A stretch of 64,000 nucleotides of DNA, from NCBI GenBank assembly GCA_041485695.1, contig JBGPJZ010000002.1, forward strand, positions 65,499-129,498. The letters run 5' to 3'. The position numbers and the translations under genes are program-made. Shown here in pieces: positions 19,838-55,181 of the stretch. Positions within the stretch are counted from its first letter, which is position 1, and each line of letters starts with the position of its first letter. The DNA is from Minisyncoccia bacterium (lineage in GTDB: Bacteria; Patescibacteriota; Minisyncoccia; Phycocordibacterales; Phycocordibacteraceae). The notes beneath the pieces are model-generated. The model did no database searches and was not told where the DNA came from. It saw only the letters and a program-made list of their open reading frames with translations.

Positions 19838-20400
19838 GCAACACCTAAGGCTTTATTAATATCTTCAGCGATTTTCTCTGGTGCCTGTTCGCCGTTTACC
19901 TCAATAAGGCTCCCTGCTGCGCGAAAGATGTTGATGGCTGCTTCAGTGTGAGCGCTGTACTCCTTGAGGCGCTCTTCGACGACGCTATCATCGGCGCGAC
20001 CCTCTGTCTCTTTGCGGACAAGAAGCCTGCGGCGCACCTCTTCGTCTGAAACGACAATATTGACCACGGTAAAGGAGCGACCAAGCCACGCGAGCGATGA
20101 AACGATGAGCTCGGCCTCGGGCACCTTGCGGTTAAACCCGTCAAAAATGACGCTCGAGTCAGCTGAAAGCGAGAAAAGCGCTTTTTGATAGAGATACATC
20201 GCGAACCAGTGCGGCATAAGGGCGCCATTCCCCATCTCCGATTTCACTTTCCTGCCGACAGGCGTGTCCTCAAGAGCTATCTCTCGGAACTGCTTGCCGG
20301 CGGAGATGGTCGGCCAGCCGGTTTTCTCGCTTAACAGTTTCGCCTGGGTGCCTTTGCCGCACCCAGGCTTACCAACAAAAAAGATAGTGCGCGTATCCAT
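19834..20400 (-). CDS. adk: adenylate kinase (short, LID-less form)
   Basis: FFVGKPGCGKGTQAKLL ... FDGFNR ... In the canonical position after secY. Stop overlaps the map start. Confidence 0.85.
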   Translation of the reverse strand: MDTRTIFFVGKPGCGKGTQAKLLSEKTGWPTISAGKQFREIALEDTPVGRKVKSEMGNGALMPHWFAMYLYQKALFSLSADSSVIFDGFNRKVPEAELIVSSLAWLGRSFTVVNIVVSDEEVRRRLLVRKETEGRADDSVVEERLKEYSAHTEAAINIFRAAGSLIEVNGEQAPEKIAEDINKALGVA

Positions 20401-38331: not shown

Positions 38332-38940
38332 TTATACCACGCCAGGAGCAATCTTCGTTAATTGCTCGCGGATGACTTCAGGGTACAGCTTCCGCTCCTC
38401 GACCTTGATCCGTTCCCACAGATGCGCCACGCGCAGAGCGAGTGAGATTGATTCGTCAAGCTCTTCGGGCAATACCGGCACTTCTACTTGGGCGATGACG
38501 GGGCCGCCATCGAGGTCCTCGGTTAGGTAATGGATAGTAGAGCCTGCAATGCTTTCGCGAGCGCGGAGTGTATCAGCGACTGCTTCTTCTCCCTTGTATT
38601 TTGGCAAGAGCGCAGGATGTGAGTTCGTAGCTACGCCGCCGTAGATCGTAAAGAAGACGGGGCTCAAACGAGTATTGAAGCCCATTGACGCCGTCACACG
38701 AATCCCCTCGTCCTCGAGACACTGCGCAACCTCGGCCGAAAAGTCGTCCCGCTTCTCCGGCGTGAATTCTGATCTGCGAAGCGGACGACTGACAAGTTTG
38801 ATGCGCAGACCCTCCGCTTTAGCTACCTCGAGCGCCCGGCAGGGGCGATCGGCCAGGACAATCGCAAAATCTATACCAGCGGCACTTGCCGCTTCTCGCA
38901 GTGTTCCGCTACCAGATACCAGCGCAGCTATCTTGAACAT
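38332..38940 (-). CDS. formyltransferase-family protein (PurN-like)
   Basis: ...IAALVSGSGT...NSHPALLPKYKG...GSTIHYLTEDLDGGPVIAQ... are the formyl_trans_N motifs. Followed by a GGCGGCGCGA-UACG-UCGCGCCGCC terminator (38215..38238). Confidence 0.7.
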   Translation of the reverse strand: MFKIAALVSGSGTLREAASAAGIDFAIVLADRPCRALEVAKAEGLRIKLVSRPLRRSEFTPEKRDDFSAEVAQCLEDEGIRVTASMGFNTRLSPVFFTIYGGVATNSHPALLPKYKGEEAVADTLRARESIAGSTIHYLTEDLDGGPVIAQVEVPVLPEELDESISLALRVAHLWERIKVEERKLYPEVIREQLTKIAPGVV

Positions 38941-39887: not shown

Positions 39888-39920
39888 AAAAGTCCCGCGG
39901 TAATCCGCGGGACTTTTGCA
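39888..39920 (+). terminator. intrinsic terminator AGUCCCGCGG-UAAU-CCGCGGGACU + UUUUG
   Basis: 10-bp perfect stem after rpmB. Stem sequence resembles the terminator at 28560. Confidence 0.6.
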
Positions 39921-40072: not shown

Positions 40073-40936
40073 TTATCTTTTAGTTACCTTTCGACCGTCC
40101 GACGTGAATATAAGTCGGCCCTGCTCGTCAGTGCGATAGACAGTGGCGCCTTCGTTTGCGACGCGCGAAAGCACTTCAGGCGTCGGGTGGCCGTACGTGT
40201 TATGCGCCCCGACTGAAATCGCGACCGTGCTCGGGTGGAGCGCGGCGAGCCACGCGTCATCGGTCGAGTATTTCGAACCGTGGTGTCCTGCCTTCAATAC
40301 ATCGGTCGGCAACTCTCCATCAGTCGCGTCGAGCTGTACGAGCCAATCCTCAATAATCGACGTGAGGTCTCCCGTAAGCATGAACGATGTCGAGCCGTAG
40401 ACGACGTGCATCGTTATCGAGCCGGAGTTGGTATCAAACTTCGATACGTCGCGGTCGGGGTAGATGATGTCGGCGTACGCACCAGCGCCGAGGTCGAGGC
40501 GCATGCCGCGGCGCGCGATGACGTGGTTCACGCCCGGCTCTGCGGCCGCCGCCGCGACGAGCGCGGCGGCCGCGCGCGTGCCGTCAGGTATCCCCGGCTC
40601 GAAGAAGTTCTTGACCTCGTAGTTCGCGAACACGTCAGGCAAGCCGCCGATATGGTCTTTGTCCGGATGCGTCTCGACGACGGCGTCGAGAGTTCGCTGC
40701 CCTATCGGCAGTACTGCCCCGAGCTCGCGCAAGACCGAGCGGTCGGGGCCTCCGTCTACGAGCATCGTGATGCCGGTCGGCCCCCGCACGAGTATCGAAT
40801 CTCCCTGCCCGATATTTAGGACGGCGACCTCGAGCCCGCGCGGCGCAAGTACGTTGCGAAAGATGAACAGGTCGAGTACCGCGAGAGCCGCAGCCACGAC
40901 AAGCAAGTATTGGCGACCCCACGTGCGGCCTTGCAT
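40073..40936 (-). CDS. ComEC-type MBL-fold (lactamase_B) domain protein, membrane-anchored, encoded separately from the ComEC channel
   Basis: Start at MQGRTWGRQYLLVVAAALAVL (TM anchor); ...VLNIGQGDSILV...DAVVETHPDKDHIGGL...LKAGHHGSKYST... is typical of the ComEC C-terminal domain. Confidence 0.65.
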   Translation of the reverse strand: MQGRTWGRQYLLVVAAALAVLDLFIFRNVLAPRGLEVAVLNIGQGDSILVRGPTGITMLVDGGPDRSVLRELGAVLPIGQRTLDAVVETHPDKDHIGGLPDVFANYEVKNFFEPGIPDGTRAAAALVAAAAAEPGVNHVIARRGMRLDLGAGAYADIIYPDRDVSKFDTNSGSITMHVVYGSTSFMLTGDLTSIIEDWLVQLDATDGELPTDVLKAGHHGSKYSTDDAWLAALHPSTVAISVGAHNTYGHPTPEVLSRVANEGATVYRTDEQGRLIFTSDGRKVTKR

Positions 40937-40978
40937 AAATATAAGAACTATAGTATAGTATAGATCGAAACAGTACAA

Positions 40979-41215
40979 ATGGTGGGTATCGTGAAATGCT
41001 TGGAAGAAGCAGTTCGTCAGACTCGAGCCATATTCCCGCACGCAACTCCGCAGGAGGTGACCAGAGACATTGAGGACATCGTGTTGACTGCCCGAGAAGA
41101 AGCGGGCCGAAGATTCCCGACGGATTCGAACGAACAAGAACGATTTATCGAGACGACGGTTTCGGCGGCGGTTCAGCGAGCGCTCGGTTCTCTGACAGGC
41201 CGGATTATGCATTAG
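40979..41215 (+). CDS. small hypothetical protein (~75 aa)
   Basis: MVGIVKCLEEAVRQTRAIFPHATPQEV... (GTG at 40991 with a GGTGGG SD is an alternative start). Followed by a strong bidirectional terminator. Confidence 0.35.
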   Translation: MVGIVKCLEEAVRQTRAIFPHATPQEVTRDIEDIVLTAREEAGRRFPTDSNEQERFIETTVSAAVQRALGSLTGRIMH

Positions 41216-41228
41216 TGCAACAGTGCAA

Positions 41229-41272
41229 CGAAAACGGGCGCTCCTTGCGAGGAGCGCCCGTTTTGTATTTCA
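41229..41272. terminator. bidirectional intrinsic terminator ACGGGCGCUCC-UUGCGA-GGAGCGCCCGU
   Basis: 11-bp stem, U-run on the plus side (UUUUGUAUUUC) and UUUUCGUUGC on the minus side. Sits between convergent small ORFs. Confidence 0.6.
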
Positions 41273-41279
41273 GAAAAAT

Positions 41280-41450
41280 CTATTGATAGCCCTCGTTAGC
41301 TGTTCGGGCGCCTTGTGCAGCCTCGTCTTTGCTTTTCCCGAAGTGAGGCATGCCGTGCTTGTCCATCACGTAATAGGCGGGTCCCTCCTCAGCCATTTCT
41401 TCTGCTGCGGCTTCGGCTTCTTTGCTTCGTTTAAACTCTTCCATGCTCAT
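41280..41450 (-). CDS. small acidic hypothetical protein (~56 aa)
   Basis: MSMEEFKRSKEAEAAAEEMAEEGPAYYVMDKHGMPHFGKSKDEAAQGARTANEGYQ. Divergent from sod across an AGTATACT palindromic -10-like element. Confidence 0.3.
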   Translation of the reverse strand: MSMEEFKRSKEAEAAAEEMAEEGPAYYVMDKHGMPHFGKSKDEAAQGARTANEGYQ

Positions 41451-41539
41451 AGTCAAGATGCATTTAAGCATTTAGTAATACGCTCTAAGTATACTGTAGG
41501 CGCTCAAAAACACCAGAGTGCTTTGCTATACTGACAGAT

Positions 41540-42130
41540 ATGACTTACACCGCACGACAATTCAACCTCCCGGCCCTTAAGGGGCTTTCGGAGAAGCAGA
41601 TCAAGGTACACCTCGCGCTCTACGAGGGGTACGTCAAACACGTGAACCTCATCGCAGAGAAGCTAGGGGCGGTGCGTAGCGGCACGCTCGAACTCGACCC
41701 CTACATCGTCGCCGAGCTCCGGCGGCGGTTCGCCTTCGAGTTCGACGGCATGCGCATGCATGAATATTATTTCGAACAGTTCGAGGGGGACAAAGGTGGA
41801 GACCCGGAGTCGGCGCTCGCCAAGGCCGCCGCAGAGAAATACGGGAGCGGAGAGAATTTCCTCACGCATATCAAAGAGGTCGCGGGTACGCGCGGCATCG
41901 GCTGGGTCGTCGTTTACTACGACCCGATCGGCAAAGTGCTTCACACCGTCTTCGTCGGCGATCACGAGCTCGGCCAGCTTGCCGGCCTCCCTATCATCCT
42001 TGCTTTGGACCTCTGGGAGCACGCCTACATGGTCGACTATGTCCCTGCTGAAAAGAAGAACTACGTCGACGCCTTTTTAGATAATGTGAATTGGAGCGTC
42101 ATCGAGTCGCGCTTCGCGAAAGCGATGTAA
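41540..42130 (+). CDS. Fe/Mn-family superoxide dismutase (divergent)
   Basis: 196 aa. C-terminal DLWEHAYMVDY matches the SOD D-x-W-E-H-A-Y-Y signature, with N-terminal helical hairpin His residues. Leaderless-type start (TATACT -10 ~9 nt upstream). The 3' end overlaps the comEC 3' end by ~70 bp on the opposite strand. Confidence 0.65.
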   Translation: MTYTARQFNLPALKGLSEKQIKVHLALYEGYVKHVNLIAEKLGAVRSGTLELDPYIVAELRRRFAFEFDGMRMHEYYFEQFEGDKGGDPESALAKAAAEKYGSGENFLTHIKEVAGTRGIGWVVVYYDPIGKVLHTVFVGDHELGQLAGLPIILALDLWEHAYMVDYVPAEKKNYVDAFLDNVNWSVIESRFAKAM

Positions 42131-43554
42131 ATAAGGGCGGCGTACGCGAGGAGCACGAATATAAACGGGAACGCCGGCAGGTGAAGCGCGGCGAATGGGA
42201 GCGCGCTCCCCCACCGTGCGATAGCGATGATGTAGGCCGTGAGCGCGTACCCCGGGAGCGCAAGCGGCCAGCCAGCGGCGCCGAAGATGGCACCAGCGAG
42301 GCCGGCGAGCGCCGCGAGACCCATTGCGGCCGGCATCACCGCGGTTACGAGGAGATTCGCCGGCACCGAGACTATCGAGAAGACGCCGGTCTGGTAGAGG
42401 AGGAGCGGGAGCACTGCAGCCTGTGCGGAGAGCGTCGTCGCGAGCGCGCTACGCCAGAAGGCGTTCTTGATACGCGCTAATTTGAGCTCAATCAAGGGTG
42501 AGAGCCAAATGAGCCCCGCAGTCGCCGCGACCGAGAGGCCGAAGCCGGGGTCGAAGGCGAGGATGAACGGATTCCACGCGAGAACGAGCACGATGATGGC
42601 GAGGAGGGCGCGACCAGCCGCATAGGTGCGCCCGCTTGCGCGCGCATAGAGAGCGATTAGAGCCATAAGCGCGGCGCGGATTGCCGTTGAAGTCGCGCCT
42701 GCGACTGCCACGAAGAGGACGACCGCAATGGCTCCTGCGAGCGCGGCGCTGCCACGGCGAAATCTCAATACACCGATGAGGTACATCACCCATTCGGCGA
42801 CGACCATCACGTTGTAGCCCGAGAGCACGATGATCTGCACGAGCCCGGTCATGATAAATGCGTTTTGGAGTTCGCTCCCGAGCCCGGTCTTGCCGCCGAT
42901 GACGATGCCGCCGGCAAGCGAGGCGTATGGCTCGGGGAGGGCGGCCGAGAGGCCGCCTAAGAATGCGTGCTTCACCTGCGCAAGCGCCGAGGGCACGGAG
43001 TACCACGGAGCGGGCTCGAGGACCTTGAACGAAGCGTTGTTTATCAAGAATCGCACGCCATCTTTTTGCAGGTATTTATCATAGGCGAAGACGCGGCCCC
43101 CTTCATCGGCGCTTGAAAAGGGTTGCGGCAGGGCGAGCGTGCCTGAAACGCTGACCCGCTCCCCCACCGCTACGCCCGGGTAGCGGTCAGCAACCGCAAG
43201 CATCTTTGCACTTTCTCCGTTCGCAGAGACGAACACCGGCACGCGCTGGTTCGTGTCGCGCACATCAGGGTCGCCGACGACGACTCCTTCGTAACTCACG
43301 AAAGTGCCGAGGGTGGTCGCAAAGTGGGGCGGGAGCGGAGTGTCTGCAAGGTGCATCCGTGCAGCACCAAGCGCGAAGGATATAAAAAATAAAGCGCAGA
43401 GCGTGTACGCGAGCCGCGGCCGCGTTTTCGCGGCCGCGGCAAAAATCCCCGCAAGCATGAAGGTGAAGATGATGATCGGCCAGCCAGAAACGAAAAGCGA
43501 GCGGAGTAAGACCCCGCTCGCGAATCCGCCGACAACAGCGAACAGTGTATTCAT
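42061..43554 (-). CDS. comEC: competence protein ComEC/Rec2 membrane channel (DUF4131 + Competence domains), no fused MBL domain
   Basis: 497 aa polytopic; N-terminal OB-like region (VVVGDPDVRDTNQRVPV...) then the competence-domain TM bundle. Start overlaps the rnhA stop (ATGA). Confidence 0.75.
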   Translation of the reverse strand: MNTLFAVVGGFASGVLLRSLFVSGWPIIIFTFMLAGIFAAAAKTRPRLAYTLCALFFISFALGAARMHLADTPLPPHFATTLGTFVSYEGVVVGDPDVRDTNQRVPVFVSANGESAKMLAVADRYPGVAVGERVSVSGTLALPQPFSSADEGGRVFAYDKYLQKDGVRFLINNASFKVLEPAPWYSVPSALAQVKHAFLGGLSAALPEPYASLAGGIVIGGKTGLGSELQNAFIMTGLVQIIVLSGYNVMVVAEWVMYLIGVLRFRRGSAALAGAIAVVLFVAVAGATSTAIRAALMALIALYARASGRTYAAGRALLAIIVLVLAWNPFILAFDPGFGLSVAATAGLIWLSPLIELKLARIKNAFWRSALATTLSAQAAVLPLLLYQTGVFSIVSVPANLLVTAVMPAAMGLAALAGLAGAIFGAAGWPLALPGYALTAYIIAIARWGSALPFAALHLPAFPFIFVLLAYAALIYIAFAKRDSMTLQFTLSKKAST

Positions 43555-44000
43555 GCCTCGCCCGTGGCCGGGCTACGGCCGAGGGCACCCCGATCCATCG
43601 CTTCGTTGGCCAAGGCGTCGGCGTCGCTGTTCTGCGCACGCGGGACATGTATGAAGGTGACTGATTTGAATGCGCCAGCCTTATGCGCGAGCTTCGCGTG
43701 CTGACCCTTAAGGTTTGGATGCTTCACCTTATACTCCCCCTTCATCTGCTTTACGATGAGTTCGCTGTCCATCTTTACAACTACATCAGTTTTTTCGTGC
43801 TTGCCTTCTCCCACGATACGCGAGAGTTCGTCGAAAGCGAGGATGACCGCTTGGTATTCAGCAAAGTTATTCGTCTGATGGCCCAAGAACTTCGAAACCA
43901 CCGCGACGGTACTGCCGGCTTCATCGCGCACGACGGCGCCCGCGCCCGCGGGCCCCGGGTTCCCTCTCGCCCCGCCATCAGCATGAATCGTAAAATGCAT
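43551..44000 (-). CDS. rnhA: ribonuclease HI
   Basis: MHFTIHADGGARGNPGPAGAGAVV...NNFAEYQAVILA...VVKMDSELIVKQ...HVPRAQNSDADALAN is the DEDD RNase H fold. Confidence 0.8.
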   Translation of the reverse strand: MHFTIHADGGARGNPGPAGAGAVVRDEAGSTVAVVSKFLGHQTNNFAEYQAVILAFDELSRIVGEGKHEKTDVVVKMDSELIVKQMKGEYKVKHPNLKGQHAKLAHKAGAFKSVTFIHVPRAQNSDADALANEAMDRGALGRSPATGEA

Positions 44001-44067
44001 GCGGGCAGTATAGCAAGATACGAACTACCGGCATCCCATAAAGAGGCGCCGGTAGGTGAAACCAGGA

Positions 44068-44646
44068 TTATTTGAATTCAAGAACGAGCCCGCGGAGACC
44101 CAGCAAAATACTTTCTACTGGACGCTCTCCGTTTACTTGATGCAGAAGGCCCTGCGATTCGAAGAATGCACACGCCGTGTCAAGCGCAGCATTTTGCTCC
44201 TTAAGCCGCGCGACCATTTTCTCGAGCGTGTCGCTATCAGGCCGATGTTCTTTTTGTGCACGCGCCTGTTGTCGCCGAAGAGATTCTTCGTCGCTTATGA
44301 CGAGCTCGATGGCTCTGTAAGGCCGTTTAAGCCAAGATACTACCGTGTGGAAGTATTCTGCTTGCCTTTCGCTCCGGCCGAAGCCGTCAAAGATCGCTCC
44401 TTCTTCTGTATTCAGGCTAAGCGCGGCGTTGGAAAACAGGGAGTCGACGAACCACGTGGGCAGCATCTGACCGGTGTCATACACCTTGCGGACTCGCTCA
44501 CCGAGCTCGCTGTGGGAACCACGTATGGCACGAAACATCTCGCCGGAAGCAAAGTGTCGCCACCCGAGTTCCTTCGCGAGGAGCTTCGCTTGCGTCCCCT
44601 TGCCGGCACCTGGCCGGCCGAGGAGGAGTATCGTTTTAGTTTTCAT
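44068..44646 (-). CDS. second adenylate-kinase-family NMP kinase (short, LID-less paralog)
   Basis: Start at MKTKTILLLGRPGAGKGTQAKLLAKELG...FDGFGRS...ISDEES...VNGE. Clear paralog of adk at 19834..20400. Confidence 0.7.
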   Translation of the reverse strand: MKTKTILLLGRPGAGKGTQAKLLAKELGWRHFASGEMFRAIRGSHSELGERVRKVYDTGQMLPTWFVDSLFSNAALSLNTEEGAIFDGFGRSERQAEYFHTVVSWLKRPYRAIELVISDEESLRRQQARAQKEHRPDSDTLEKMVARLKEQNAALDTACAFFESQGLLHQVNGERPVESILLGLRGLVLEFK

Positions 44647-44682
44647 GTGAGTAATCCTTCCATTTCGTCTCAAGGCATCAAA

Positions 44683-46344
44683 TCACGACGGCTTCTGTAG
44701 GTCAACGATACGCAGGCGGGGTCGGTTCCTCCGCGAGAACTGGTCGCGCTCGAGGTGGGCGAGGATGTTTGCGCGCGAGCCTTGCGTAAGAGCTCGCGCC
44801 GCCTTCGCGATATCGCCTTTTGCGAAAAAGGTGACGGCCTCAAGCTTCCCAAAGTCGTGGACGATTTCGATTTTTAAGTGTTCGTTGCCTTTCCCGAAGT
44901 ACGAAACCCGCGAAATCGCGCACTCTCTAAGGAGAAACAGCGGTTTCCTATTCTTCTCTCCGAAGGGAGCGAGTCGTTCGACCTTCTCAAGGAGCGAGTC
45001 GTTCGCCTGATGAGCAACAATCTCGACGTCGACGTTGAGAGCCCCTTCGACAGCGAGCGTGCTCGCCGTTTTTTTATGGGCCTCAATGAGACGCTCTTCA
45101 AGATAGAAAACCTGGTCATCTTTCACAGTGAAACCAGCGGACATGGCGTGCCCGCCGAACTCGACAAAAACTCCGTCGGCGGCCGTCATGAGGTTTACGA
45201 CATGTACGGCACCATCAGAGCGGCAGGAGCCCTTCAAGGCTTGGTTGCCCTCCCTGCCCCAAAGAAAGACGGGCCGCTCATACTCTTCAGCAATCCCGTT
45301 TGCGACAAGGCCAAGTAGGCCTGGCCGCCACGCAGGGTCACCAAGCGCGATGATGCTCGGGATACTAGTGCGCGCCTTGAGCCGGTCGTGCACCGCGCGT
45401 GTTATAGCGCCGGCCTGCGCCTTGCGCTCGCGATTCGCCTTATCGAGTTTTTTCGCGAGCGCTTCGGCTTCGGTCTCGTCTTTCGTCGTAAAGAGCTTGA
45501 AGGCTTCGTGGGCGTCGCCCATCCTCGACGCGGCATTCACGCGCGGCGCGATCATAAAACCGACGTCGTCCTCGGTAATCATCGATTGGTTCATGCGCAT
45601 GACGCGGCAGAGTCTTTGCAGCCCGATGCGCGGGGATTTGCGAAGCACTTTGAGGCCGTACTTCGCGAGCACGCGATTCTCGCCCACCAAGGGCATCATG
45701 TCAGCGATAGTCGCGAGACCGACCATGTCGAGGAGCCACTTCTCCCAGCCCGTCGGGACCTTTTCACGGAGCGAGGGGTGGACAGCGAGTACGGCGCAGA
45801 CAAGCTTCCACGCCGTCGCTGCCCCGCAAAGCTCGGGAAAGGGATATGTTTCTCCTTCTTGCTTGTCATCCACCACGATGGCATCCGGGAGGATGTCGCC
45901 AGGGAGATGGTGGTCGGTCACGATGACATCCATCCCGAGCGCTCGCGCTCGCGCGACCGGCGCGATATCCGTAATGCCCGAGTCGGCGGTGACGAGAAGT
46001 TTCACCCCGCTCTCGGCGAGTTTCTCGACGCCCTCGACATTCACGCCATACCCCTCTTCGTGCCGGTGCGGTATGTAAATCTCGAAATTCGCGCCCGCTT
46101 TTTGCAAAAAATCATGGAGCAAAACCGCTGCGGGGATGCCGTCGCAGTCATAATCGGTCCATGCGGCGATTCTCTCACCAGAGAGAATCGCCGCCCCGAG
46201 CCGCTCCGCAGCCTCTCGCATGTTCTTCATCAGTAGCGGGTCGTAGAGGTGGAGGTCGTACGAAGGGTTCAAGAATCTCTCGATGTCTTCTTTCGTCTCG
46301 ACACCGCGATTGCGCAAGAGGAGGAGCGTAAAATCATCCGGCAT
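44683..46344 (-). CDS. recJ: single-stranded-DNA-specific exonuclease RecJ
   Basis: 553 aa with DHH (VIVTDHH) and DHHA1 motifs plus a C-terminal OB-like region. Confidence 0.85.
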   Translation of the reverse strand: MPDDFTLLLLRNRGVETKEDIERFLNPSYDLHLYDPLLMKNMREAAERLGAAILSGERIAAWTDYDCDGIPAAVLLHDFLQKAGANFEIYIPHRHEEGYGVNVEGVEKLAESGVKLLVTADSGITDIAPVARARALGMDVIVTDHHLPGDILPDAIVVDDKQEGETYPFPELCGAATAWKLVCAVLAVHPSLREKVPTGWEKWLLDMVGLATIADMMPLVGENRVLAKYGLKVLRKSPRIGLQRLCRVMRMNQSMITEDDVGFMIAPRVNAASRMGDAHEAFKLFTTKDETEAEALAKKLDKANRERKAQAGAITRAVHDRLKARTSIPSIIALGDPAWRPGLLGLVANGIAEEYERPVFLWGREGNQALKGSCRSDGAVHVVNLMTAADGVFVEFGGHAMSAGFTVKDDQVFYLEERLIEAHKKTASTLAVEGALNVDVEIVAHQANDSLLEKVERLAPFGEKNRKPLFLLRECAISRVSYFGKGNEHLKIEIVHDFGKLEAVTFFAKGDIAKAARALTQGSRANILAHLERDQFSRRNRPRLRIVDLQKPS

Positions 46345-46358
46345 GGAGGAATGATACT

Positions 46359-46769
46359 ATGTCGGGGATGGAAGATACTATTTTCGATAAAATCATCCGT
46401 CGCGAGGTACCGGCCGACGTCGTGTACGAAGACGAAAGCGTCATTGCCTTTCTCGACATCAAACCCAACAACCCAGGCCATACGCTCGTCGTACCAAAAA
46501 ACTGGTCGCGCAACATTTTTGATATGGAGGACGCCAATCTGTGCACTCTTATAACGCGTGTCAAAAAAATCGCCCATGCCGTAAAAGAGGCGCTGAACGC
46601 GGATGGCGTCAATATCGCCATGAACAACGAACCAGCGGCCGGGCAAATCGTCTTTCATGCCCACATCCATGTCATCCCCCGTTTTATAGGAGATAACCGC
46701 GAACACAAGACGTACGCCCCCGGCGAAGCCGCTGCTATAGCTGCAAAAATCCGCGCCGCACTTACATAA
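46359..46769 (+). CDS. HIT-family (histidine triad) nucleotide hydrolase
   Basis: ...FLDIKPNNPGHTLVVPK...HAHIHVIPR... Confidence 0.85.
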   Translation: MSGMEDTIFDKIIRREVPADVVYEDESVIAFLDIKPNNPGHTLVVPKNWSRNIFDMEDANLCTLITRVKKIAHAVKEALNADGVNIAMNNEPAAGQIVFHAHIHVIPRFIGDNREHKTYAPGEAAAIAAKIRAALT

Positions 46770-49124: not shown

Positions 49125-50231
49125 ATGTATAAAGAGACCGTAGAAAGACAATTTAAGGCCGCAGATATTGAGATAAACGGCAAAAGGCCATGGGACATTC
49201 AAGTACATGATGAGAGATTCTATAAACGTTTATTCTTGCATCGCTCGCTCGGGTTAGGAGAGTCTTACATGGAAAAGTGGTGGGACTGTGAAAGGATCGA
49301 TCTGTTTATCGAGAAAGTGTCGCGTTCAATCGGAAATAATAAAATAACCATATCCTTTGCGATGTTATGGATTAAAGCCCGTCTTTTTAACTTGCAGTCA
49401 CCACAGGGCGCACGCAAAGTTATTGAGGAGCATTATGACCTCAGCAACGATTTGTACATGTCCTTTCTCGACCGCTATAACCAGTACACCTGCGGATTTT
49501 TCCAAGAGACTACCGACCTCAACAAAGCACAGGAGCAGAAACTAGAACTCATTTGTAAGAAGCTGCATTTAAAACGGGAAGACCGCGTTCTCGATATCGG
49601 GTGCGGGTGGGGTGGTTTCGCTAAATACGCAGCAGAGCACTACGGATGTCGTGTGGTAGGAATTACCATCTCTGATGCACAGCTTGCCTACGCACAAAAA
49701 GACACGGATGGACTACCTGTGGAAATACGCAAACAAGATTACAGGGACTTATCAGGCGAGGAGTTCGACAAAATCGTTATCATCGGGATGATTGAACACG
49801 TTGGTTATAAGAATTATGAGAAACTATTAAAGACAGTAGCAGGGTGTTTGGCCGACGACGGGCTTTTTCTTCTTCATACCATCGGAAGGAACGACAGCGC
49901 GTCTACCGGTGAACCTTGGTCACATAAATACATCTTCCCGAACGGGATGCTTCCCTCTATCAAACAAATCGGAGAAGCGAGCGAAGACGTCTTTGTCATG
50001 GAAGACTGGCATAACTTTGGTCCTTATTATGTCGATACGCTTCTTGCTTGGGACGCAAACTTCCAGAAGAACTGGCTCCAGATAAAAAAGGATTACTCAG
50101 AAACGTTCTTTAGGATGTTTAGATATTATTTCAATAGTTTTGCAGGCGCTTTCAGGGCACGCCATATCCAATTGTGGCAAGTAGTTTTTAGCAAAGGAGT
50201 AACCAATAGGGTTTACGAGCGTGTACGCTAA
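49125..50231 (+). CDS. cfa: cyclopropane-fatty-acyl-phospholipid synthase family methyltransferase (CMAS)
   Basis: ...HYDLSNDLYMSFLDRYNQYTCGFF...LDIGCGWGGFAKYAAEHYG... CMAS signature. Gene is visibly AT-rich (roughly 40-45% GC) against ~60% flanks. Confidence 0.85.
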   Translation: MYKETVERQFKAADIEINGKRPWDIQVHDERFYKRLFLHRSLGLGESYMEKWWDCERIDLFIEKVSRSIGNNKITISFAMLWIKARLFNLQSPQGARKVIEEHYDLSNDLYMSFLDRYNQYTCGFFQETTDLNKAQEQKLELICKKLHLKREDRVLDIGCGWGGFAKYAAEHYGCRVVGITISDAQLAYAQKDTDGLPVEIRKQDYRDLSGEEFDKIVIIGMIEHVGYKNYEKLLKTVAGCLADDGLFLLHTIGRNDSASTGEPWSHKYIFPNGMLPSIKQIGEASEDVFVMEDWHNFGPYYVDTLLAWDANFQKNWLQIKKDYSETFFRMFRYYFNSFAGAFRARHIQLWQVVFSKGVTNRVYERVR

Positions 50232-50232
50232 A

Positions 50233-51663
50233 TTATTGCTCGCGCCAATCGACGAACTGGTACTGGGTCGAGGTAATCGGGGTAAATACGGGCGGATTCG
50301 TTGAATTTTGCCGGTCGAACGTCGTAGTGCGCGTCGGGTACCCCGAATGTTTCCCATTGCCGCAGCCGTAGCCCGAATACGTCCAATACGTGCCGGGCTT
50401 TAAGTTCGACACGATAGTACCGAGGATGGTTAGGGTGTTTTTGTTTGCATACGCAGCGTTCGCACAGGTGTACATATTCATACCGAAGGCGCCTGATTGC
50501 GAGATGAAGATGCCATCAAGCGTAAGGTTCGATGGTGCGTCCGGAGCAATGAGGACATCTCCTTGCGATACGAGCGTGAACCCGGCGCTCCCGTCAAAAA
50601 CGGAGTATACGATGTTGTTTTTAAGGAGCGTGTAGGGGACAACTCCAGCGTGCGCAACATCAGCGACCGCGAGCGTTACCTTGCCGCTTATCGTTCCCTC
50701 AACCCAGGTGTGATCCTCGACATAGATAAGCGGGCAGCCTGAAGGGATGGCGTAGGTGCCGTCCAAGACTTCATTCTGGATAAGCGTGTATTCGGTCTGG
50801 AGCCCGGCGCCCGGGTTACTGACCGGAACGGCCGAGACCGTATTCTCGCTACCCACCCTGTAAACAGTGACGGTTCCGTTCGAATTAAAAATAAGGTGAT
50901 AGCCCTTGAAATAGGCATTGCCGCCGTTACCCGAGCTGGTGCGGGCGAAATAGAGCCCTGTTGCTTGTGCCGTCGTCTTGAGCGCAGAGAAGTCTGCTGA
51001 AATCGCCCCGAAGTCTGTCTGGGGCGTCGGGTACTGCCACAAGCTCTGATCGACACCCGCGCCGAAAACCCCGGGCTTCACTGCAGAAGGAGCGCAGCCG
51101 AAATTCGCATCGCAGGTCCAGGTCGCGAGAGAGCTCGTTACCGGCGACGTCGAGGTGCCGTCCATGCGGATACCGCCGTTTGAATGAAAGGGGCCGAAGA
51201 GGGTCGAACCGACCCATACGCTTGAATTGACGATAAAAGAGTACTGCGCCACTGAAGGCTGCGCATAGCGCGCCCAGAGCGTTTTCGAAACCGTGGGAGC
51301 GTCGCTTGGCACGCCCTTCGAGGTCACATCGATTGAACTCTTCTGCCCGCACGCTGCGTTGCCTGTGATGGAGAGCGTGTAGGTACCGGCGGCACCCCCT
51401 TGCGGGTCAAGGTAGGAAACTTGGTATGGCCCAGGCTGGCCGGTACCGTTCTGCGTGTCACCCGGGAAGTGGGAAAGGAACCAGCGGTAATACTCAAGGC
51501 CCGCTTCAGAAATAGCGAATGATTCCTGTTTCTGCCGCTGCAGCTCCTCTGCGCGATTTTCGAGTAAAACGTACCCTGAAATGGCGGTAAGAACCGAAAA
51601 AAAGATCGCCCCGAATACAAGCACAAGGAGGAGTATCGAGCCCCGTCGGCGGATAGTTTTCAT
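50233..51663 (-). CDS. large pilus-associated protein with PilX-like N-terminal anchor
   Basis: MKTIRRRGSILLLVLVFGAIFFSVL... N-terminal hydrophobic helix, then Gly/Ser/Thr-rich beta-rich domain. Last gene of the pilus operon, overlapping the upstream pilin stop. Confidence 0.4.
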   Translation of the reverse strand: MKTIRRRGSILLLVLVFGAIFFSVLTAISGYVLLENRAEELQRQKQESFAISEAGLEYYRWFLSHFPGDTQNGTGQPGPYQVSYLDPQGGAAGTYTLSITGNAACGQKSSIDVTSKGVPSDAPTVSKTLWARYAQPSVAQYSFIVNSSVWVGSTLFGPFHSNGGIRMDGTSTSPVTSSLATWTCDANFGCAPSAVKPGVFGAGVDQSLWQYPTPQTDFGAISADFSALKTTAQATGLYFARTSSGNGGNAYFKGYHLIFNSNGTVTVYRVGSENTVSAVPVSNPGAGLQTEYTLIQNEVLDGTYAIPSGCPLIYVEDHTWVEGTISGKVTLAVADVAHAGVVPYTLLKNNIVYSVFDGSAGFTLVSQGDVLIAPDAPSNLTLDGIFISQSGAFGMNMYTCANAAYANKNTLTILGTIVSNLKPGTYWTYSGYGCGNGKHSGYPTRTTTFDRQNSTNPPVFTPITSTQYQFVDWREQ

Positions 51664-52256
51664 TTTTGAGTTGAAAGGTTGCGCAAGGTCGCACCGGCAG
51701 AGAGCGTATACACGGTCGGTGCGCGGGTCGGGTTCACGTCGGTGAGGACCGTCAATTTGACCGAAATGATGGAAGGGATGACCGGAGCCGCCCCGAGAGC
51801 GGTCCCGTTGCTATCATAGTACGTGAACAGCGGCGTCGACGTACCATTACGTATGTTATCAACCACGAGAGTCACGACCTCTGGTTGCCCAGCATACGAA
51901 GGGGGGTTGCCAATCGGCTCGGTTACTCCGCGATAGAAGGTGAACCCTGAAAGGTAGTAGCGGACTTTCTCAAGTACCGACGTACCGGATATGTCAGAGT
52001 AAAAAGTGATGGTCGAGGTGGCTGCAGCGGCAATCGGATAGGAGCCATCAGCAGCATACGAGGCCTCGCGCAGGTTAGAGACGGCGTTTTGAATACTGCG
52101 GCGCGCGCTCTCAACCGCCTGGGTCTGCTCCAGCGTGTAGGCATTCGTTTGATAGAAATATTGAATCAAGAATCCCACTGCGAGCATGACGACCACCGAG
52201 ATAGTCATTGTTACCAGCATCTCAATGAGCGTAAAACCGCGAGGGAGGTAGGCCAT
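51660..52256 (-). CDS. type IV minor pilin / pseudopilin (prepilin-type N-terminal methylation motif)
   Basis: MAYLPRGFTLIEMLVTMTISVVVMLAVG... is the class III signal peptide G|FTLIEML. Confidence 0.8.
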   Translation of the reverse strand: MAYLPRGFTLIEMLVTMTISVVVMLAVGFLIQYFYQTNAYTLEQTQAVESARRSIQNAVSNLREASYAADGSYPIAAAATSTITFYSDISGTSVLEKVRYYLSGFTFYRGVTEPIGNPPSYAGQPEVVTLVVDNIRNGTSTPLFTYYDSNGTALGAAPVIPSIISVKLTVLTDVNPTRAPTVYTLSAGATLRNLSTQK

Positions 52257-52260
52257 ACGA

Positions 52261-53964
52261 TTAGGGAAAAGCAGCCTCGAATGTCGTCAGTCCTCCCACG
52301 GCAACGCCCGGGAACTGCGTCGTGGTGTATCCCGCCTTTGATATCGTAACGGTATAGGTGTTGGCAGAGATGTTGCCGAAATACGCATTGCCGCACGCAG
52401 AGCTCACGACGCTTGCAGAAAATCCTGCTCGAGTAAGGTCGACTGTAGCACCACTGACTGCGAGCCCTCCTGAATCGACGACCGAGATAAAGAGCGAATT
52501 CGTTGTGGCGGCGCCAAGCACGAGAGAGGCGGCAAGCGACTCTCCAGCTGCAAGGGTATACGGGGGCGTGGGGCACGTATCGACGATATCGTAACCTGGC
52601 ACCGAGAGAGCGTACCCGTCCCGTTCAAGAGGGGCTGCCACCTGCGCGCCCGCTCCTGTTGTCGTATTCACCACTGTCTTGTAAATGGGCGCCCCGCCGG
52701 CGGTCGAACCAATCGTCTTAGTGCCTGTAAGCATAAACGATACATTCGCTAAAGGAGCGGGGCCCGCAAGCGCAGAGATTGACCAGCCAAGGATGGAAGG
52801 GGCTGTCGTGGTAGCGGTCGAAAGCAGGGCTCCTATCGCAAGCGAGGGATAGGTCGAGGTTGAAATAGTTGAGAGATTGATGGGGAAAGTCATGAATCCG
52901 ACTGAATTGCCAGGGAGTACCGCGTCAGGGAGAAGCGCTCCAGAGCCGTCGTAGATTTGAATAGCTGCAGACGTATCGGTCGTGGTCGAAAGCGCTGACG
53001 AGACGCTCTCCCACCTCGAAAGGTACTGCGGAGCGAACGCGATGGAGCGAACGTTCCCGTTCACCTCCCCTGGGTTAAGAGTAAGCGTCCCGCCTGAAAC
53101 AATGACGCTTGAAGAAGCTGCGATGTTTGAACCGTTCGCAAACGTATCCGCGAACGTCGTAGTTGCAGGGGGTGAAAAGGTCGAAAGCGTCAGCACTCCC
53201 ATGAGGTCAATCGCAAAGGTCCCCGTTGTCGTTTGATCTTTTGAAATAGTGAGTAATCCGGGAGTCGGGTTCGCATTCTGTGCATCTACCGGGTAGGTCT
53301 GAGCCGAGGAGCAGCCGCTCTTGCTCACGTACACTTGGTACTCTGACGACGTCGCGGCACCCGGCAAGTAGACGATGCCGCTCATGTTGCTAAAGGTGGT
53401 GAGGTCAACGGGGGGCGACGTGCTTGTATTTATGATGTGGACGGTGGCGCCCGAGAGGCAAGCGCCAGCCGGGTCGACCACCTTGACCTGGAGCGTCCCA
53501 CCGCCCGTTGAACTTTCGATGGTGGGCGGTACGAAATTCGAAATGAACGCGATGCTTTTAGCGATCCCTGCGATCACATATGAGACTGAAACCTTAGCGA
53601 CTTTGTAGTCAGTCGTGATGCCAGTCTGATCTAAGGCGCCCGTGCCATCAGCAGGGTCATCGACGTATTCAATGAACGTGTGCGTTACGAAATCCACGCC
53701 GCTCACGGTCGTCGTTGCGACCTGCGGTATCAGCCCTGCAGGAATGCCACCCACGGTGCCCAAGGAGTCGTAGGCGAGGCCGCGCAAGTATTCCACTTGG
53801 CTCTGCGCAACAGAGCTTGCAGAGGCACTGGCCTTGCCCACGATTGAAAGGATGATTGAAACGCGCAGGAGCCCGAGGAGGGCAAGAAACAGCGCCAGGA
53901 AGATTGCGATACCCACGATGGTCTCGATAAGACCGAATCCCCGCGCATGGTGCGAGGTTGGCAT
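52261..53964 (-). CDS. large type IV pilin (567 aa) with prepilin N-terminus and CarboxypepD_reg-like Ig domains
   Basis: ...HHARG|FGLIETIVGIAIFLAL... prepilin motif; long Thr/Ser/Gly-rich extracellular region with ...SGATVHIINTS...YQVYVSKSG... domain repeats. Confidence 0.75.
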   Translation of the reverse strand: MPTSHHARGFGLIETIVGIAIFLALFLALLGLLRVSIILSIVGKASASASSVAQSQVEYLRGLAYDSLGTVGGIPAGLIPQVATTTVSGVDFVTHTFIEYVDDPADGTGALDQTGITTDYKVAKVSVSYVIAGIAKSIAFISNFVPPTIESSTGGGTLQVKVVDPAGACLSGATVHIINTSTSPPVDLTTFSNMSGIVYLPGAATSSEYQVYVSKSGCSSAQTYPVDAQNANPTPGLLTISKDQTTTGTFAIDLMGVLTLSTFSPPATTTFADTFANGSNIAASSSVIVSGGTLTLNPGEVNGNVRSIAFAPQYLSRWESVSSALSTTTDTSAAIQIYDGSGALLPDAVLPGNSVGFMTFPINLSTISTSTYPSLAIGALLSTATTTAPSILGWSISALAGPAPLANVSFMLTGTKTIGSTAGGAPIYKTVVNTTTGAGAQVAAPLERDGYALSVPGYDIVDTCPTPPYTLAAGESLAASLVLGAATTNSLFISVVDSGGLAVSGATVDLTRAGFSASVVSSACGNAYFGNISANTYTVTISKAGYTTTQFPGVAVGGLTTFEAAFP

Positions 53965-53967
53965 AGG

Positions 53968-55179: not shown

Positions 55180-55181
55180 AC

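Follow-up and report, generated by a model that had tools for sequence, protein, structure and literature searches.

Organization of the locus

The window, a stretch of 64,000 nucleotides from a relative of Kaiserbacteria (Patescibacteria), carries on its minus strand the genes recJ, adk2, rnhA and comEC, followed by a separate gene, mbl, for the metallo-beta-lactamase (MBL) nuclease subunit of ComEC (Table 1). An earlier note on this DNA had described these genes as closely packed, and both the packing and the gene identities were confirmed by profile matches and measured spacings. Only 36 bp separate recJ from adk2 and 67 bp separate adk2 from rnhA, while the rnhA stop and the comEC start, read directly in the sequence, share the 4-bp overlap ATGA. 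The overlap of about 70 bp reported for the convergent sod is also present: the 3' ends of comEC and sod overlap by 70 bp, and this overlap is kept in relatives. The start codon of mbl lies 1.1 kb from the comEC stop. Two independent assemblies cover the recJ-adk2-rnhA junctions (L001 with 99.9% identity and L002 with 100%), which excludes a chimeric assembly as its origin.

Two tiny ORFs had been noted between comEC and mbl, of which orf63 alone looks real. It has no Pfam or NCBIfam match, and its counterpart in L034 occupies the same position. The other, a plus-strand ORF of 103 aa that overlaps orf63 on the opposite strand, has no Pfam match and no match in any related locus searched. Most related loci also carry the HIT-family gene beside recJ, with its place and orientation unchanged. 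The nearby type IV pilus operon is indeed present just upstream of the cluster and is a conserved neighbor, being located directly upstream of tpi (in the order tpi-pgk-recJ) in at least 12 Kaiserbacteria loci. Just downstream of the cluster lies the ribosomal str-S10-spc superoperon, and a PurN-like gene is also encoded within the window.

Table 1. Features of the recJ-comEC region and related genes in the window
Feature	Positions	Strand	Description and support
adk1	19834-20400	-	secY-linked adenylate kinase, 188 aa; follows secY; aligns to T. thermophilus Adk, E=1e-26
mbl/rpmB hairpin	39888-39917	.	palindromic, between convergent mbl and rpmB (L28); 13-bp stem, 8 GC pairs, T-runs
mbl	40073-40936	-	detached ComEC MBL nuclease subunit, 287 aa; TIGR00361 (full-length ComEC model) positions 395-663
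orf63 hairpin	41228-41262	-	intrinsic-terminator-like, after orf63; ACGGGCGCTCC-loop-GGAGCGCCCGT, then TTTTCGTT; read directly in the sequence
orf63	41280-41471	-	small acidic protein, probably a real gene; 61% identical homologue, same position, in L034
sod	41540-42130	+	Fe/Mn superoxide dismutase, convergent with comEC; PF02777 71 bits, NF041312 97 bits
comEC	42061-43554	-	channel subunit, OB fold (DUF4131) and Competence transmembrane domain, 497 aa; PF03772 133.7 bits, PF13567 44.9 bits
rnhA	43551-44000	-	RNase HI, RVT_3 (archaeal/actinobacterial) type, 149 aa; PF13456 (RVT_3) 72 bits, PF00075 (RNase_H) 40 bits, NF005567 RNase H domain 150 bits
-10 box	44007-44012	-	TATACT, 6 nt before rnhA ATG; predicted leaderless promoter of rnhA-comEC
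adk2-rnhA hairpin	44025-44055	-	GC-rich, in the spacer; CTACCGGCG...GCCGGTAG; candidate recJ-adk2 terminator
adk2	44068-44646	-	second short-type (short-LID) adenylate-kinase-family protein, 192 aa from ATG 44646; PF00406 89 bits
recJ	44683-46344	-	single-stranded-DNA 5'-3' exonuclease, 553 aa; TIGR00644 492.5 bits (cutoff 396.9); DHH, DHHA1 and RecJ_OB domains
HIT gene	46359-46769	+	HIT-family nucleotide hydrolase, divergent from recJ, 14 bp between start codons; PF01230 103 bits
Type IV pilus operon	50233-56939	-	pilB, pilC, three pseudopilin or pilus-associated genes; T2SSE 405 bits, T2SSF 195 bits, N_methyl motif

ComEC is split into a channel and an MBL subunit

The MBL domain of ComEC is detached, as had been claimed, and is encoded by a membrane-anchored gene of its own. 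Whereas the full-length ComEC 30bt_A (801 aa) is a single chain, two proteins of the window match separate parts of it, indicating a clean fission: comEC, in which a profile search found no MBL domain, aligns to residues 146-432, and mbl to residues 506-789 (E=4e-37). The second alignment pairs THPDKDHIGGL with THPDADHIGGL and includes matches at HHGS and GHP. The mbl product is anchored by a single N-terminal transmembrane helix, its H-x-D-x-D-H metallo-beta-lactamase domain is intact, and all the motifs defined for this domain (PMC12455585) are present (GQGD, HPDKDH, TGD, GHHGS and YGHP), with the catalytic ones intact. Its most likely start is the ATG at 40936 and not 41212, since in the closest relative, L034, the alignment begins with the first residue of the shorter form. 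An AT-rich upstream region precedes mbl separately.

The fission is general among the relatives. In the 40 related loci where comEC is visible, mbl is always a separate ORF and never fused to comEC, and the two halves are always neighbors. They adjoin directly in roughly a fifth of related loci, and sod is interposed in about two thirds of related metagenome loci. From the homology with fused ComEC, it may be supposed that the MBL subunit and the channel physically associate. In vitro, the MBL nuclease is more effective with the OB fold on the same chain (PMC12455585), so the split might weaken its activity. The ComEC of the window is 51-64% identical to that of 19 Kaiserbacteria-like genomes, and in the closest Kaiserbacteria relatives the MBL is a truncated, catalytically dead remnant, indicating that the nuclease is dispensable in part of the clade.

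Transcription signals suggest at least two units

The predicted promoter of rnhA is well kept: 13 of 14 Kaiserbacteria relatives have TATAGT, TATACT or TATAAT at the matching distance, 6-7 nt ahead of the rnhA ATG, with differing flanks. Elsewhere in the window this signature likewise precedes first genes but not internal ones, a pattern that fits leaderless first genes. A TAnnnT -10-like box is likewise present 6-9 nt before the recJ ATG. Ahead of adk2 stands a Shine-Dalgarno-like GGAAGGA without any -10 box, and the gene is thus probably cotranscribed with recJ. After adk2, the RNA of the 75-nt spacer preceding rnhA has a minimum free energy of -20.6 kcal/mol and a 9-bp stem. This hairpin may terminate the recJ-adk2 transcript, an assignment that we regard as tentative because a scan for consensus terminators did not report the hairpin. 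Given the conserved leaderless -10 box before rnhA and the hairpin after adk2, there are probably at least two transcription units, recJ-adk2 and rnhA-comEC, and the single four-gene unit previously proposed was not borne out. Further downstream, the orf63 stop is followed by a strong hairpin and a T-run, probably its own terminator, and the hairpin between mbl and rpmB is probably a bidirectional terminator closing the cluster.

The second adenylate kinase

The adk2 product is 39% identical to adk1, and the two group together in none of 100 bootstrap trees. The solved structures that match it best are those of short-type AK1 and T. thermophilus Adk (E about 1e-21), and in the alignment it retains all canonical catalytic and AMP-site residues (P-loop, Arg36, Arg88, Gln92 and the LID arginines). 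Its NCBIfam score of 119 bits is sub-threshold, in line with the 89-134 bits of five further Adks scored from this phylum. By these features adk2 appears to be an unremarkable ATP:(d)AMP phosphotransferase of the short type, and the special role once suggested for it finds no support in its residues, which resemble those of an ATP:AMP adenylate kinase. In the databases its closest relatives reach 42% identity, none exceeds 43% among 5.8 billion proteins, and the three with context checked are all secY-linked adk genes. A gene of this kind was found between recJ and rnhA in none of 42 related loci; adk2 is thus, judged from sequence, a lineage-specific insertion confined to one genome.

The two kinases differ at the adenine-reading position of canonical Adk, where adk2 keeps Gln92 (...GRSERQAE...) and adk1 has Glu (...NRKVPEAE...). 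This raises the question of whether adk2, and not adk1, might be the functionally canonical adenylate kinase in this organism, or whether the two might have divided substrates between them. The presence of Glu in 22 of 92 Patescibacteria homologues, including the secY-linked P0008, could be seen in the same light. However, each of L003-L006, the loci of P0008, has within the stretch fetched no adk other than the Glu-type one, and adk2 is missing near comEC in the close relatives examined, so the Glu form is presumably a working adenylate kinase. We therefore consider an exchange or division of roles between the two enzymes quite unlikely.

Conservation of gene order in relatives

Among about 100 related loci, 44 were informative for the order of recJ and comEC. 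Upstream of comEC and on its strand, recJ is present in 42 of these and an rnhA homologue in 40, and the order recJ, RNase H, comEC persists to about 33-48% protein identity. All seven loci with recJ and without an rnhA match have between recJ and comEC a canonical E. coli-type PF00075 RNase HI (123-146 bits), which resembles the rnhA of the window over the N-terminal 60 residues only. The arrangement recJ-RNase H-comEC-(sod)-mbl is deeply conserved in this group, and since the order of the first three is so widely kept and the RNase H slot is retained across subfamilies, their linkage exceeds chance. Conservation among relatives, proposed as a check by the earlier note, held for these genes and not for adk2, whose absence from all 42 loci means that the four-gene unit is not conserved.

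It must be taken into account that the whole region of 10-20 kb is collinear in relatives, including tpi, pgk, L28, M50 and S12, which are unrelated, and part of the conservation may be inherited gene order and not selection for a module. In the strictest form of this argument, recJ and rnhA would be ordinary replication and repair genes lying without functional coupling beside comEC, in a stable core region flanked by the ribosomal superoperon and, at its opposite end, by the pilus operon together with glycolysis genes, with adk2 in a tolerant intergenic spot. The flanking genes, HIT included, are equally well kept across the same loci, many unrelated genes have entered intergenic sites of the cluster in different lineages, and in L011 recJ is gone from the block with no other change. 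Neutral synteny would nevertheless leave unexplained the RNase H slot maintained through a swap of subfamily, the overlapping or abutting rnhA stop and comEC start in the window and several relatives (the gap is 0 in L008, L011, L020, L023 and L061), the nucleotide-level conservation of the rnhA promoter and the constant proximity of the ComEC halves, and it is an unlikely explanation for the whole pattern.

Discussion

We think it probable that the locus is the Kaiserbacteria/Paceibacteria version of a DNA-uptake neighborhood, to which one extra gene was added in this genome. Its conserved core would consist of recJ, a leaderless rnhA-comEC unit and a separate one-helix MBL nuclease, mostly parted from comEC by a convergent sod. 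Following known ComEC biology, pili would carry double-stranded DNA to the membrane, where the anchored MBL subunit may dock from outside on the channel/OB subunit and degrade the non-translocated strand 5'-to-3', while the other strand would enter in single-stranded form. Once inside the cytoplasm, it could be trimmed or degraded 5'-to-3' by RecJ, and RNase HI could remove RNA from hybrids. The adk2 gene would have been inserted behind recJ, and is probably transcribed with it. The sequence is compatible with imported DNA mainly feeding nucleotide pools or mainly serving recombination, and does not decide between these uses.

A more specific proposal was that recJ, adk2, rnhA, comEC and mbl form a dedicated scavenging pipeline, which would take up DNA, break it down to (d)NMPs with RecJ, RNase H and the MBL nuclease and re-phosphorylate these via adk2, the genes being kept together for this purpose. 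The linkage of recJ, RNase H and comEC beyond ordinary synteny, the detached MBL and the neighboring pilus operon agree with such a proposal, whereas adk2 as a conserved member and the single operon do not. B. subtilis offers a precedent with comEB (dCMP deaminase), which belongs to its comE operon. The idea is not new, since nucleotide scavenging has already been proposed for the Com systems of CPR bacteria in general, which are expected to scavenge DNA (PMC6744442). However, in the one CPR bacterium tested, a member of the Saccharibacteria, transformation needs comEC and growth does not (PMC10633639). Moreover, an adenylate kinase covers (d)AMP only, one of four nucleotides, the adk2 gene is peculiar to this genome and probably set apart from rnhA-comEC by the hairpin and promoter, and the PurN-like enzyme encoded in the window may also count against the pipeline. 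A pipeline using DNA as food is a plausible idea that this locus does not demonstrate, and we find it improbable that the cluster is dedicated to it.

The genes inserted at the cluster in other lineages bear on the same question. Besides adk2 and the HIT gene by recJ, nucleotide-metabolism genes have joined it more than once: L010 has a cytidine/dCMP-deaminase-fold gene and a PurM-like gene directly upstream of comEC, L073 has a NUDIX gene, and the L096 lineage has ndk and adk directly after mbl, adk being followed by map. Most genes inserted elsewhere, however, are unrelated to nucleotides (M23 peptidase, malic enzyme, lipase, alpha/beta hydrolase, glutamate racemase, Fic, DedA/VTT, MscL, VIT1, regulators and many unknowns), so the site looks permissive for insertions. 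The position of adk in the L096 lineage could itself stem from a rearrangement of the neighboring ribosomal superoperon, which in relatives ends with secY-adk-map-ndk.

Conservation of the comEC neighbourhood

The association of recJ, an RNase HI gene, a split comEC and a type IV pilus operon is real and deeply conserved in this clade. A scan restricted to one genome per species recovered 22 loci with a ComEC relative. Nineteen belong to genomes that cluster with Candidatus Kaiserbacteria, many of them labelled just Parcubacteria, Paceibacterota or "bacterium", and their ComEC proteins are 51-64% identical to that of the window; the other three are in more distant Parcubacteria-like genomes (ComEC 29-31% identical). 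When the window proteins were compared by tblastn with the Kaiserbacteria-like loci, the recurring order was tpi - pgk - HIT - recJ - rnhA - comEC - sod - mbl - L28 - M50, with the HIT, sod and L28 genes on the opposite strand, and tpi is immediately preceded by the pilus operon in at least 12 of them. Here sod encodes an Fe/Mn superoxide dismutase and mbl the metallo-beta-lactamase (MBL) nuclease domain of ComEC. A second scan, in which an alignment of intact MBL proteins was searched against metagenome contigs, added 80 loci that show this order in far more divergent sequences (identity 39-48% for recJ, 26-43% for ComEC). Among the loci where the 5' end of comEC is visible and at least 2.5 kb lie upstream of it, recJ is present upstream of comEC on the same strand in 42 of 44.

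Of the 55 loci in which the 5' end of comEC can be seen, 40 have a homologue of the window rnhA. Seven loci have both recJ and comEC and gave no tblastn match to the window rnhA; in all seven the intervening gene encodes a canonical E. coli-type RNase HI (PF00075, 123-146 bits; the copy in locus L046 also scored 157.6 bits on NF001236), and three of the seven proteins carry a C-terminal hybrid-binding (Cauli_VI) domain. Similarity between these enzymes and the window rnhA is confined to the first 60 residues, whereas the RVT_3-type RNase HI in the lineage of locus L096 is 40% identical to the latter over the full length. The occurrence of an E. coli-type enzyme in some loci and an RVT_3-type enzyme in others at the same spot indicates that the RNase H slot was refilled by a different RNase HI subfamily, which argues for selection keeping RNase H activity beside comEC. 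Several relatives share with the window an rnhA stop codon that overlaps or directly adjoins the comEC start. This junction and the conserved -10 box before rnhA (see below) are further evidence that the recJ-RNase H-comEC linkage goes beyond inherited gene order. In this clade, comEC is consistently preceded by an RNase HI gene, with recJ just before it; no relevant description of a recJ-comEC cluster in these bacteria came up in full-text literature searches.

Gene layout in the window

Each of the gene identities proposed in the earlier note was confirmed by ORF listing and family searches (see the table). RecJ passes the equivalog cutoff of its family, with all three Pfam domains found, and the rnhA translation shows D8, E48, D78 and D126/D128, which we take to be the catalytic DEDD carboxylates. 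The tight same-strand packing described there also holds, with 36 bp between recJ and adk2, 67 bp between adk2 and rnhA, and a shared tetranucleotide ATGA (a 4-bp overlap) between rnhA and comEC. Two independent public assemblies reproduce the recJ-adk2-rnhA junctions with 99.9% and 100% identity, so the arrangement is not an assembly artefact. The 3' ends of comEC and sod, on opposite strands, overlap by 70 bp (42061-42130), and both C-termini are coded by the same DNA; overlaps of this type of about 50-60 bp recur in relatives. The small gene orf63 matched no known family, and its homologue in the related locus L034 is 61% identical and occupies the same place.

Coordinates of features in the window and, where a locus is named, in related sequences
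Feature	Coordinates	Strand	Evidence or description
recJ	44683-46344	-	TIGR00644 492.5 bits (cutoff 396.9); DHH, DHHA1, RecJ_OB domains
adk2	44068-44646	-	192 aa; PF00406 89 bits (cutoff 26.8)
rnhA	43551-44000	-	RNase HI of RVT_3 type; RVT_3 72.2 bits (cutoff 21.6), RNase_H 40.4 bits (cutoff 25.8)
rnhA -10 box (predicted)	44007-44012	-	
comEC	42061-43554	-	OB fold (DUF4131) and Competence channel domain only
sod	41540-42130	+	Fe/Mn superoxide dismutase; convergent with comEC
orf63	41280-41471	-	Small, acidic, 63 aa; between sod and mbl; own strong terminator hairpin at about 41228-41262
mbl	40073-40936	-	MBL fold; TIGR00361 positions 395-663 (C-terminal part of full-length ComEC model)
Bidirectional hairpin	39888-39917		Sole element taken from the generic scan
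adk1	19834-20400		After secY
Type IV pilus operon	50233-56939		pilB, pilC, pseudopilins
Methyltransferase, cyclopropane-fatty-acid-synthase-like	49125-50231		PF02353 273 bits
RNase J	4776-6722		TIGR00649 472 bits
Candidate second beta-CASP RNase J-like gene	16855-18243		
PurN-like formyltransferase	38332-38940		TIGR00639 100 bits (cutoff 150)
214-aa ORF (rejected)	44056-44700; L001 907-1551	+	Antisense to adk2
E. coli-type RNase HI between recJ and comEC	L046 1862-2581; L053 3141-3638; L059 2520-3311; L064 2713-3600; L072 3130-3612; L076 1913-2737; L104 2273-3010		
Dead mbl remnants (examples)	L007 2780-3517; L008 12046-12558		Equivalent to window 40073-40936
Deaminase-fold and PurM-like genes	L010 7859-9349		PurM-like: TIGR00878 175 bits
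recJ-rnhA-comEC-mbl-ndk-desulfoferrodoxin-adk-map	L096 3951-9141		Co-directional run

A 214-aa plus-strand ORF covering adk2 was considered as the real gene in its place and ruled out by the strong family match and intact motifs of adk2. The JGI public gene call on L001, another assembly of the same arrangement, picked this antisense ORF, and adk2 is thus absent from that annotation; automated calls may overlook genes like adk2 elsewhere.

Upstream of the cluster, recJ and the HIT-family gene are divergent, a pair kept in most related loci, and only 14 bp separate their start codons (46344-46359), so that the promoter of each must be located within the other. The otherwise conserved pilus-tpi junction is broken in the window by a cyclopropane-fatty-acid-synthase-like methyltransferase gene with a GC content of 0.44 as against 0.56 for the window; it has no match in the related loci searched and is probably a horizontally acquired insertion. 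The window also contains an RNase J gene; a second beta-CASP RNase J-like gene may be present, as suggested by the N-terminal sequence of the candidate and by the similar placement of an MBL/beta-CASP gene downstream of adk in the related loci L003 and L029.

The split ComEC and its detached MBL nuclease

The product of comEC has an OB fold (DUF4131, PF13567; residues 25-170, 44.9 bits, cutoff 31.6) and a Competence domain (PF03772; residues 218-481, 133.7 bits, cutoff 23), after which the ORF stops, and it does not have the three-domain form of ComEC. On the full-length model TIGR00361 the channel gene scored 54.7 bits and mbl 102.1 bits, both below the cutoff of 190. The earlier note had described the MBL domain as detached from ComEC, and alignment to one full-length chain bears this out: the comEC product aligns to residues 146-432 of the 801-residue structure 30bt, and the mbl product (287 aa from the ATG at 40936) to residues 506-789 (E=4e-37), an alignment that takes in the preceding transmembrane helix and the motifs THPDKDHIGGL, HHGS and GHP. 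A longer, 379-aa form of mbl starting at 41212 was dropped in favour of this ATG; residue 1 of the short form is where both the alignments with homologues and the transmembrane helix begin.

According to a passage of PMC12455585, the ComEC-specific MBL signature is H-x-D-x-D-H. The window mbl has HPDKDH together with GQGD, TGD, GHHGS and YGHP, and hence a ComEC-type MBL active site. The two genes are the product of a clean gene fission, with the nuclease left intact and membrane-anchored; by homology with fused ComEC, this nuclease should face the exterior of the membrane. The split extends to the relatives, the MBL domain being fused to comEC in none of the 40 metagenome loci with both parts visible; mbl lies directly downstream of comEC in about one fifth of them, and sod lies between the two in about two thirds.

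The three-domain ComEC/Rec2 proteins of Moorella/Neomoorella (structures 30bt and 9ic4), as described in passages of PMC12455585 and PMC13539106, have the same OB fold, Competence channel and MBL domain, with H-x-D-x-D-H and downstream His/Asp ligands. In the window, however, the MBL domain and its preceding transmembrane helix form a separate gene 1.1 kb away, with its own upstream region and separated from comEC by the convergent sod and a small ORF, and all 40 related loci that could be judged are likewise split. Domain surveys list ComEC forms with and without MBL (a passage of PMC6299819), and the ComEC-MBL fusion is stated to be essentially absent in CPR in a passage of Meheust et al. 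2019 (PMC6744442). The MBL-less ComEC of CPR in the latter, and the DC domain profile in the former (Pimentel & Zhang 2018), likewise comprise DUF4131 and Competence with no fused MBL. Whereas these passages treat the MBL domain as absent, here it is a neighbouring membrane-anchored gene, intact in the window and degenerate in close relatives; an MBL encoded as a separate neighbouring gene finds no mention in the passages of PMC6299819 or of the recent ComEC structure papers (PMC12455585, PMC13539106). A precedent both for a separate strand-degrading nuclease and for dead MBL domains is S. pneumoniae, where ComEC has an inactive MBL and EndA acts in trans, as summarised in a passage of PMC12455585; there, however, the nuclease in trans is the unrelated EndA, and in the window it would be the ComEC MBL domain itself, detached. 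The MBL nuclease reported as "missing" from CPR ComEC is a separate membrane-anchored subunit encoded next door, intact in some lineages and dead in others, which refines the reading of the ComEC domain surveys. The split ComEC, like the pair adk1 and adk2, offers defined constructs for biochemistry.

The closest Kaiserbacteria-like genomes (L007-L025) have, in place of mbl, a truncated and catalytically dead remnant that codes for about 150-250 aa. H-x-D-x-D-H is replaced (e.g. by SVTAGS), the TGD aspartate is gone, and a deletion of about 55 residues takes out GHHGS...GHP, yet conservation extends over the transmembrane helix and the N-terminal half. The intact enzyme is kept by the window and by L034.

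The second adenylate kinase

The four-gene set with the kinase is specific to this genome. From the order recJ-adk2-rnhA-comEC that the earlier note took as a unit, the recJ-RNase H-comEC part is kept in relatives (42/44), but an adk homologue between recJ and rnhA was found in 0 of 42 related loci, where the spacer between these two genes is mostly 17-150 bp. A search of 5.8 billion proteins returned one identical copy of adk2, the next-best matches being at most 43% identical; the genomic context of three of these was examined, and each is an ordinary adk gene linked to secY in other Paceibacterota. The metagenome scan with adk2 as query recovered no relative at all, an outcome that speaks neither for nor against orthologues.

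The secY-adk-map context is held by adk1, which is 39% identical to adk2. In a reduced neighbour-joining analysis, adk1 groups with its orthologue P0005, and adk2 has a long branch of unstable position, placed at the base of the Paceibacterota short-Adk clade or close to it. It is the specific sister of adk1 in 0 of 100 bootstraps, which excludes a recent duplication of adk1; the tree cannot decide between an old paralogue and horizontal transfer. The GC3 of adk2 (0.585) is below that of its neighbours (0.67-0.75) and near that of adk1 (0.61), a composition that is not decisive for transfer.

To judge from its motifs, adk2 resembles a standard adenylate kinase of the short type. The best-matching structures are vertebrate AK1 and Thermus thermophilus Adk (3cm0), with E values of about 1e-21 and end-to-end alignment. 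It shares with them the P-loop (GRPGAGKGTQ, of the GxxGxGKGT form), a short LID with its arginines, and the equivalents of Arg36, Arg88, Gln92, Arg123, Arg156 and Arg167 (E. coli numbering), which all align and are carried by the segments MFRAI, DGFGRSERQAE, SLRRQ, HRPDSD and VARL. From Adk structures, we take the roles of these six residues to be AMP-site and catalytic. It differs from these two enzymes in being a second copy, located between recJ and rnhA and away from secY-adk-map, and in scoring below the NCBIfam equivalog cutoffs (best score 119.2 bits, cutoff 187). However, adk1, three secY-linked Paceibacterota Adks and the Adk of L096 are also below cutoff (89-134 bits), and the shortfall of adk2 thus reflects the divergence of the phylum. 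At the adenine-contacting Gln92 position adk1 has Glu (DGFNRKVPEAE), as do 22 of 92 Patescibacteria homologues, whereas adk2 keeps Gln.

Promoters and transcription units

A single recJ-adk2-rnhA-comEC operon, as suggested in the earlier note, is contradicted by a predicted internal promoter and hairpin. In 14 of 15 sequences, comprising the window and 13 of 14 Kaiserbacteria relatives, the ATG of rnhA is preceded at 6-7 nt by a -10 box (TATAGT, TATACT or TATAAT). The box is often extended with TG or GG, its flanking sequence is unconserved, and in several relatives it lies inside the end of recJ. A leaderless mRNA with the A of ATG as its first nucleotide would need a spacing of 6-7 nt between box and ATG, and the Kaiserbacteria-like relatives examined would share a conserved leaderless -10 box immediately before the RNase HI gene upstream of comEC. 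The start of adk2 lacks a -10 box and has a Shine-Dalgarno-like GGAAGGA, nine nucleotides ahead of the ATG, and the gene is followed by a GC-rich hairpin (-20.6 kcal/mol for the adk2-rnhA spacer). Because of these three features, the predicted transcription units are most likely recJ-adk2, then rnhA-comEC, with sod, orf63 and mbl each transcribed separately.

The pattern is not limited to this cluster, since 18 of the 47 window genes have TAnnnT at -15 to -10, including recJ, rnhA, sod, adk1 and the candidate second RNase J gene, and genes inside close-packed co-directional runs (comEC, adk2, pilC, secY) have no such box. The distribution of the motif suggests that leaderless mRNAs would be widespread in this organism. 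The genes rarA and fkbM also have TAnnnT 6-9 nt before the start codon, and such first genes are without a Shine-Dalgarno sequence. A generic scan for sigma-70 promoters and terminators did not exceed shuffled sequence in its number of sites and overlooked features that were later recognised by eye; one bidirectional hairpin was taken from it.

Insertions, nucleotide enzymes and the role of the cluster

CPR/Patescibacteria are thought to live off the building blocks of other cells. In Vibrio cholerae, transforming DNA that enters the cell is reportedly degraded by RecJ. It might be proposed that recJ, RNase HI, the ComEC channel and the MBL nuclease in trans, beside the pilus operon, form a Paceibacteria-wide module dedicated to DNA import and breakdown, which repeatedly recruits nucleotide-converting enzymes (adk2 in the window, a deaminase with a PurM-like protein in L010, ndk-adk in the lineage of L096). 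If true, this would be a signature that ComEC uptake in these ultra-small bacteria mainly feeds nucleotide pools and not recombination. We consider this proposal unlikely.

Several genes do link the cluster to nucleotides. The HIT hydrolase beside recJ is conserved and nucleotide-related, a NUDIX protein interrupts the cluster in L073, and in L075, L080, L096, L097 and L101 a close-packed co-directional run continues from recJ-rnhA-comEC-mbl into ndk-desulfoferrodoxin-adk-map. However, since the cluster borders a ribosomal superoperon that in relatives ends secY-adk-map-ndk, rearrangement could have put the adk of the L096 lineage, followed by map, beside mbl without selection. Insertions unrelated to nucleotides comprise an M23 peptidase, an RNA polymerase alpha-CTD-like protein, a TrmB regulator, malic enzyme (twice), a GDSL lipase, an alpha/beta hydrolase, glutamate racemase, Fic, VTT/DedA, a pilin-like lectin, ORF6N, VIT1, DUF975, MscL and an HTH protein, and about fifteen inserted ORFs have no family match. 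About one fifth of the annotated insertions touch nucleotides, in a small sample examined after the fact, a share that is perhaps above the genome average. The dominant picture is one of permissive intergenic sites, with accessory nucleotide enzymes such as adk2 as sporadic add-ons outside the core.

In the B. subtilis comE operon (comEA-comEB-comEC), comEB encodes a dCMP deaminase and lies directly upstream of comEC. A cytidine/dCMP-deaminase-fold gene sits exactly there in L010, where it and the PurM-like gene lie between rnhA and comEC, directly upstream of the latter. In the window, a nucleotide-metabolism gene, adk2, likewise lies upstream of comEC, at a distance of two genes. It differs from comEB in that it encodes an adenylate kinase, is unconserved and is probably on the transcript of recJ and not on that of comEC.

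The interpretation offered in the earlier note finds partial support. Its scavenging hypothesis had been put forward before, and the locus does not decide it. A passage of Meheust et al. (PMC6744442) already expects CPR cells to scavenge DNA since they are unable to make nucleotides. In passages of Wang et al. 2023 (PMC10633639) on the cultured Saccharibacterium Southlakia epibionticum, the com genes made no fitness contribution; cells deleted for comEC were viable, and natural transformation depended on this gene. The Com system described there belongs to the same phylum, combines ComEC with type IV pili and carries the same nucleotide-supply hypothesis for an organism without de novo synthesis; these passages differ from the present case in describing no recJ-RNase H-comEC linkage or split MBL. 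The near-universal Com and pilus machinery of CPR may be a feeding or a gene-exchange device.

Two further observations concern genes around the cluster. In the L096 lineage a superoxide reductase directly follows comEC-mbl, whereas in most other lineages a superoxide dismutase lies between comEC and mbl, so that two unrelated superoxide-detoxifying enzymes accompany the ComEC genes. Between M50 and rpsL, where relatives have nothing, the window encodes a PurN-like formyltransferase, a gene relevant to the supposed absence of purine synthesis from the genome. Identity to the best non-self matches is 44-47%, and the few of these with an organism name are PurN of Acidimicrobiales (actinobacterial). 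At 0.586, the GC3 of the gene matches the low value of adk2.
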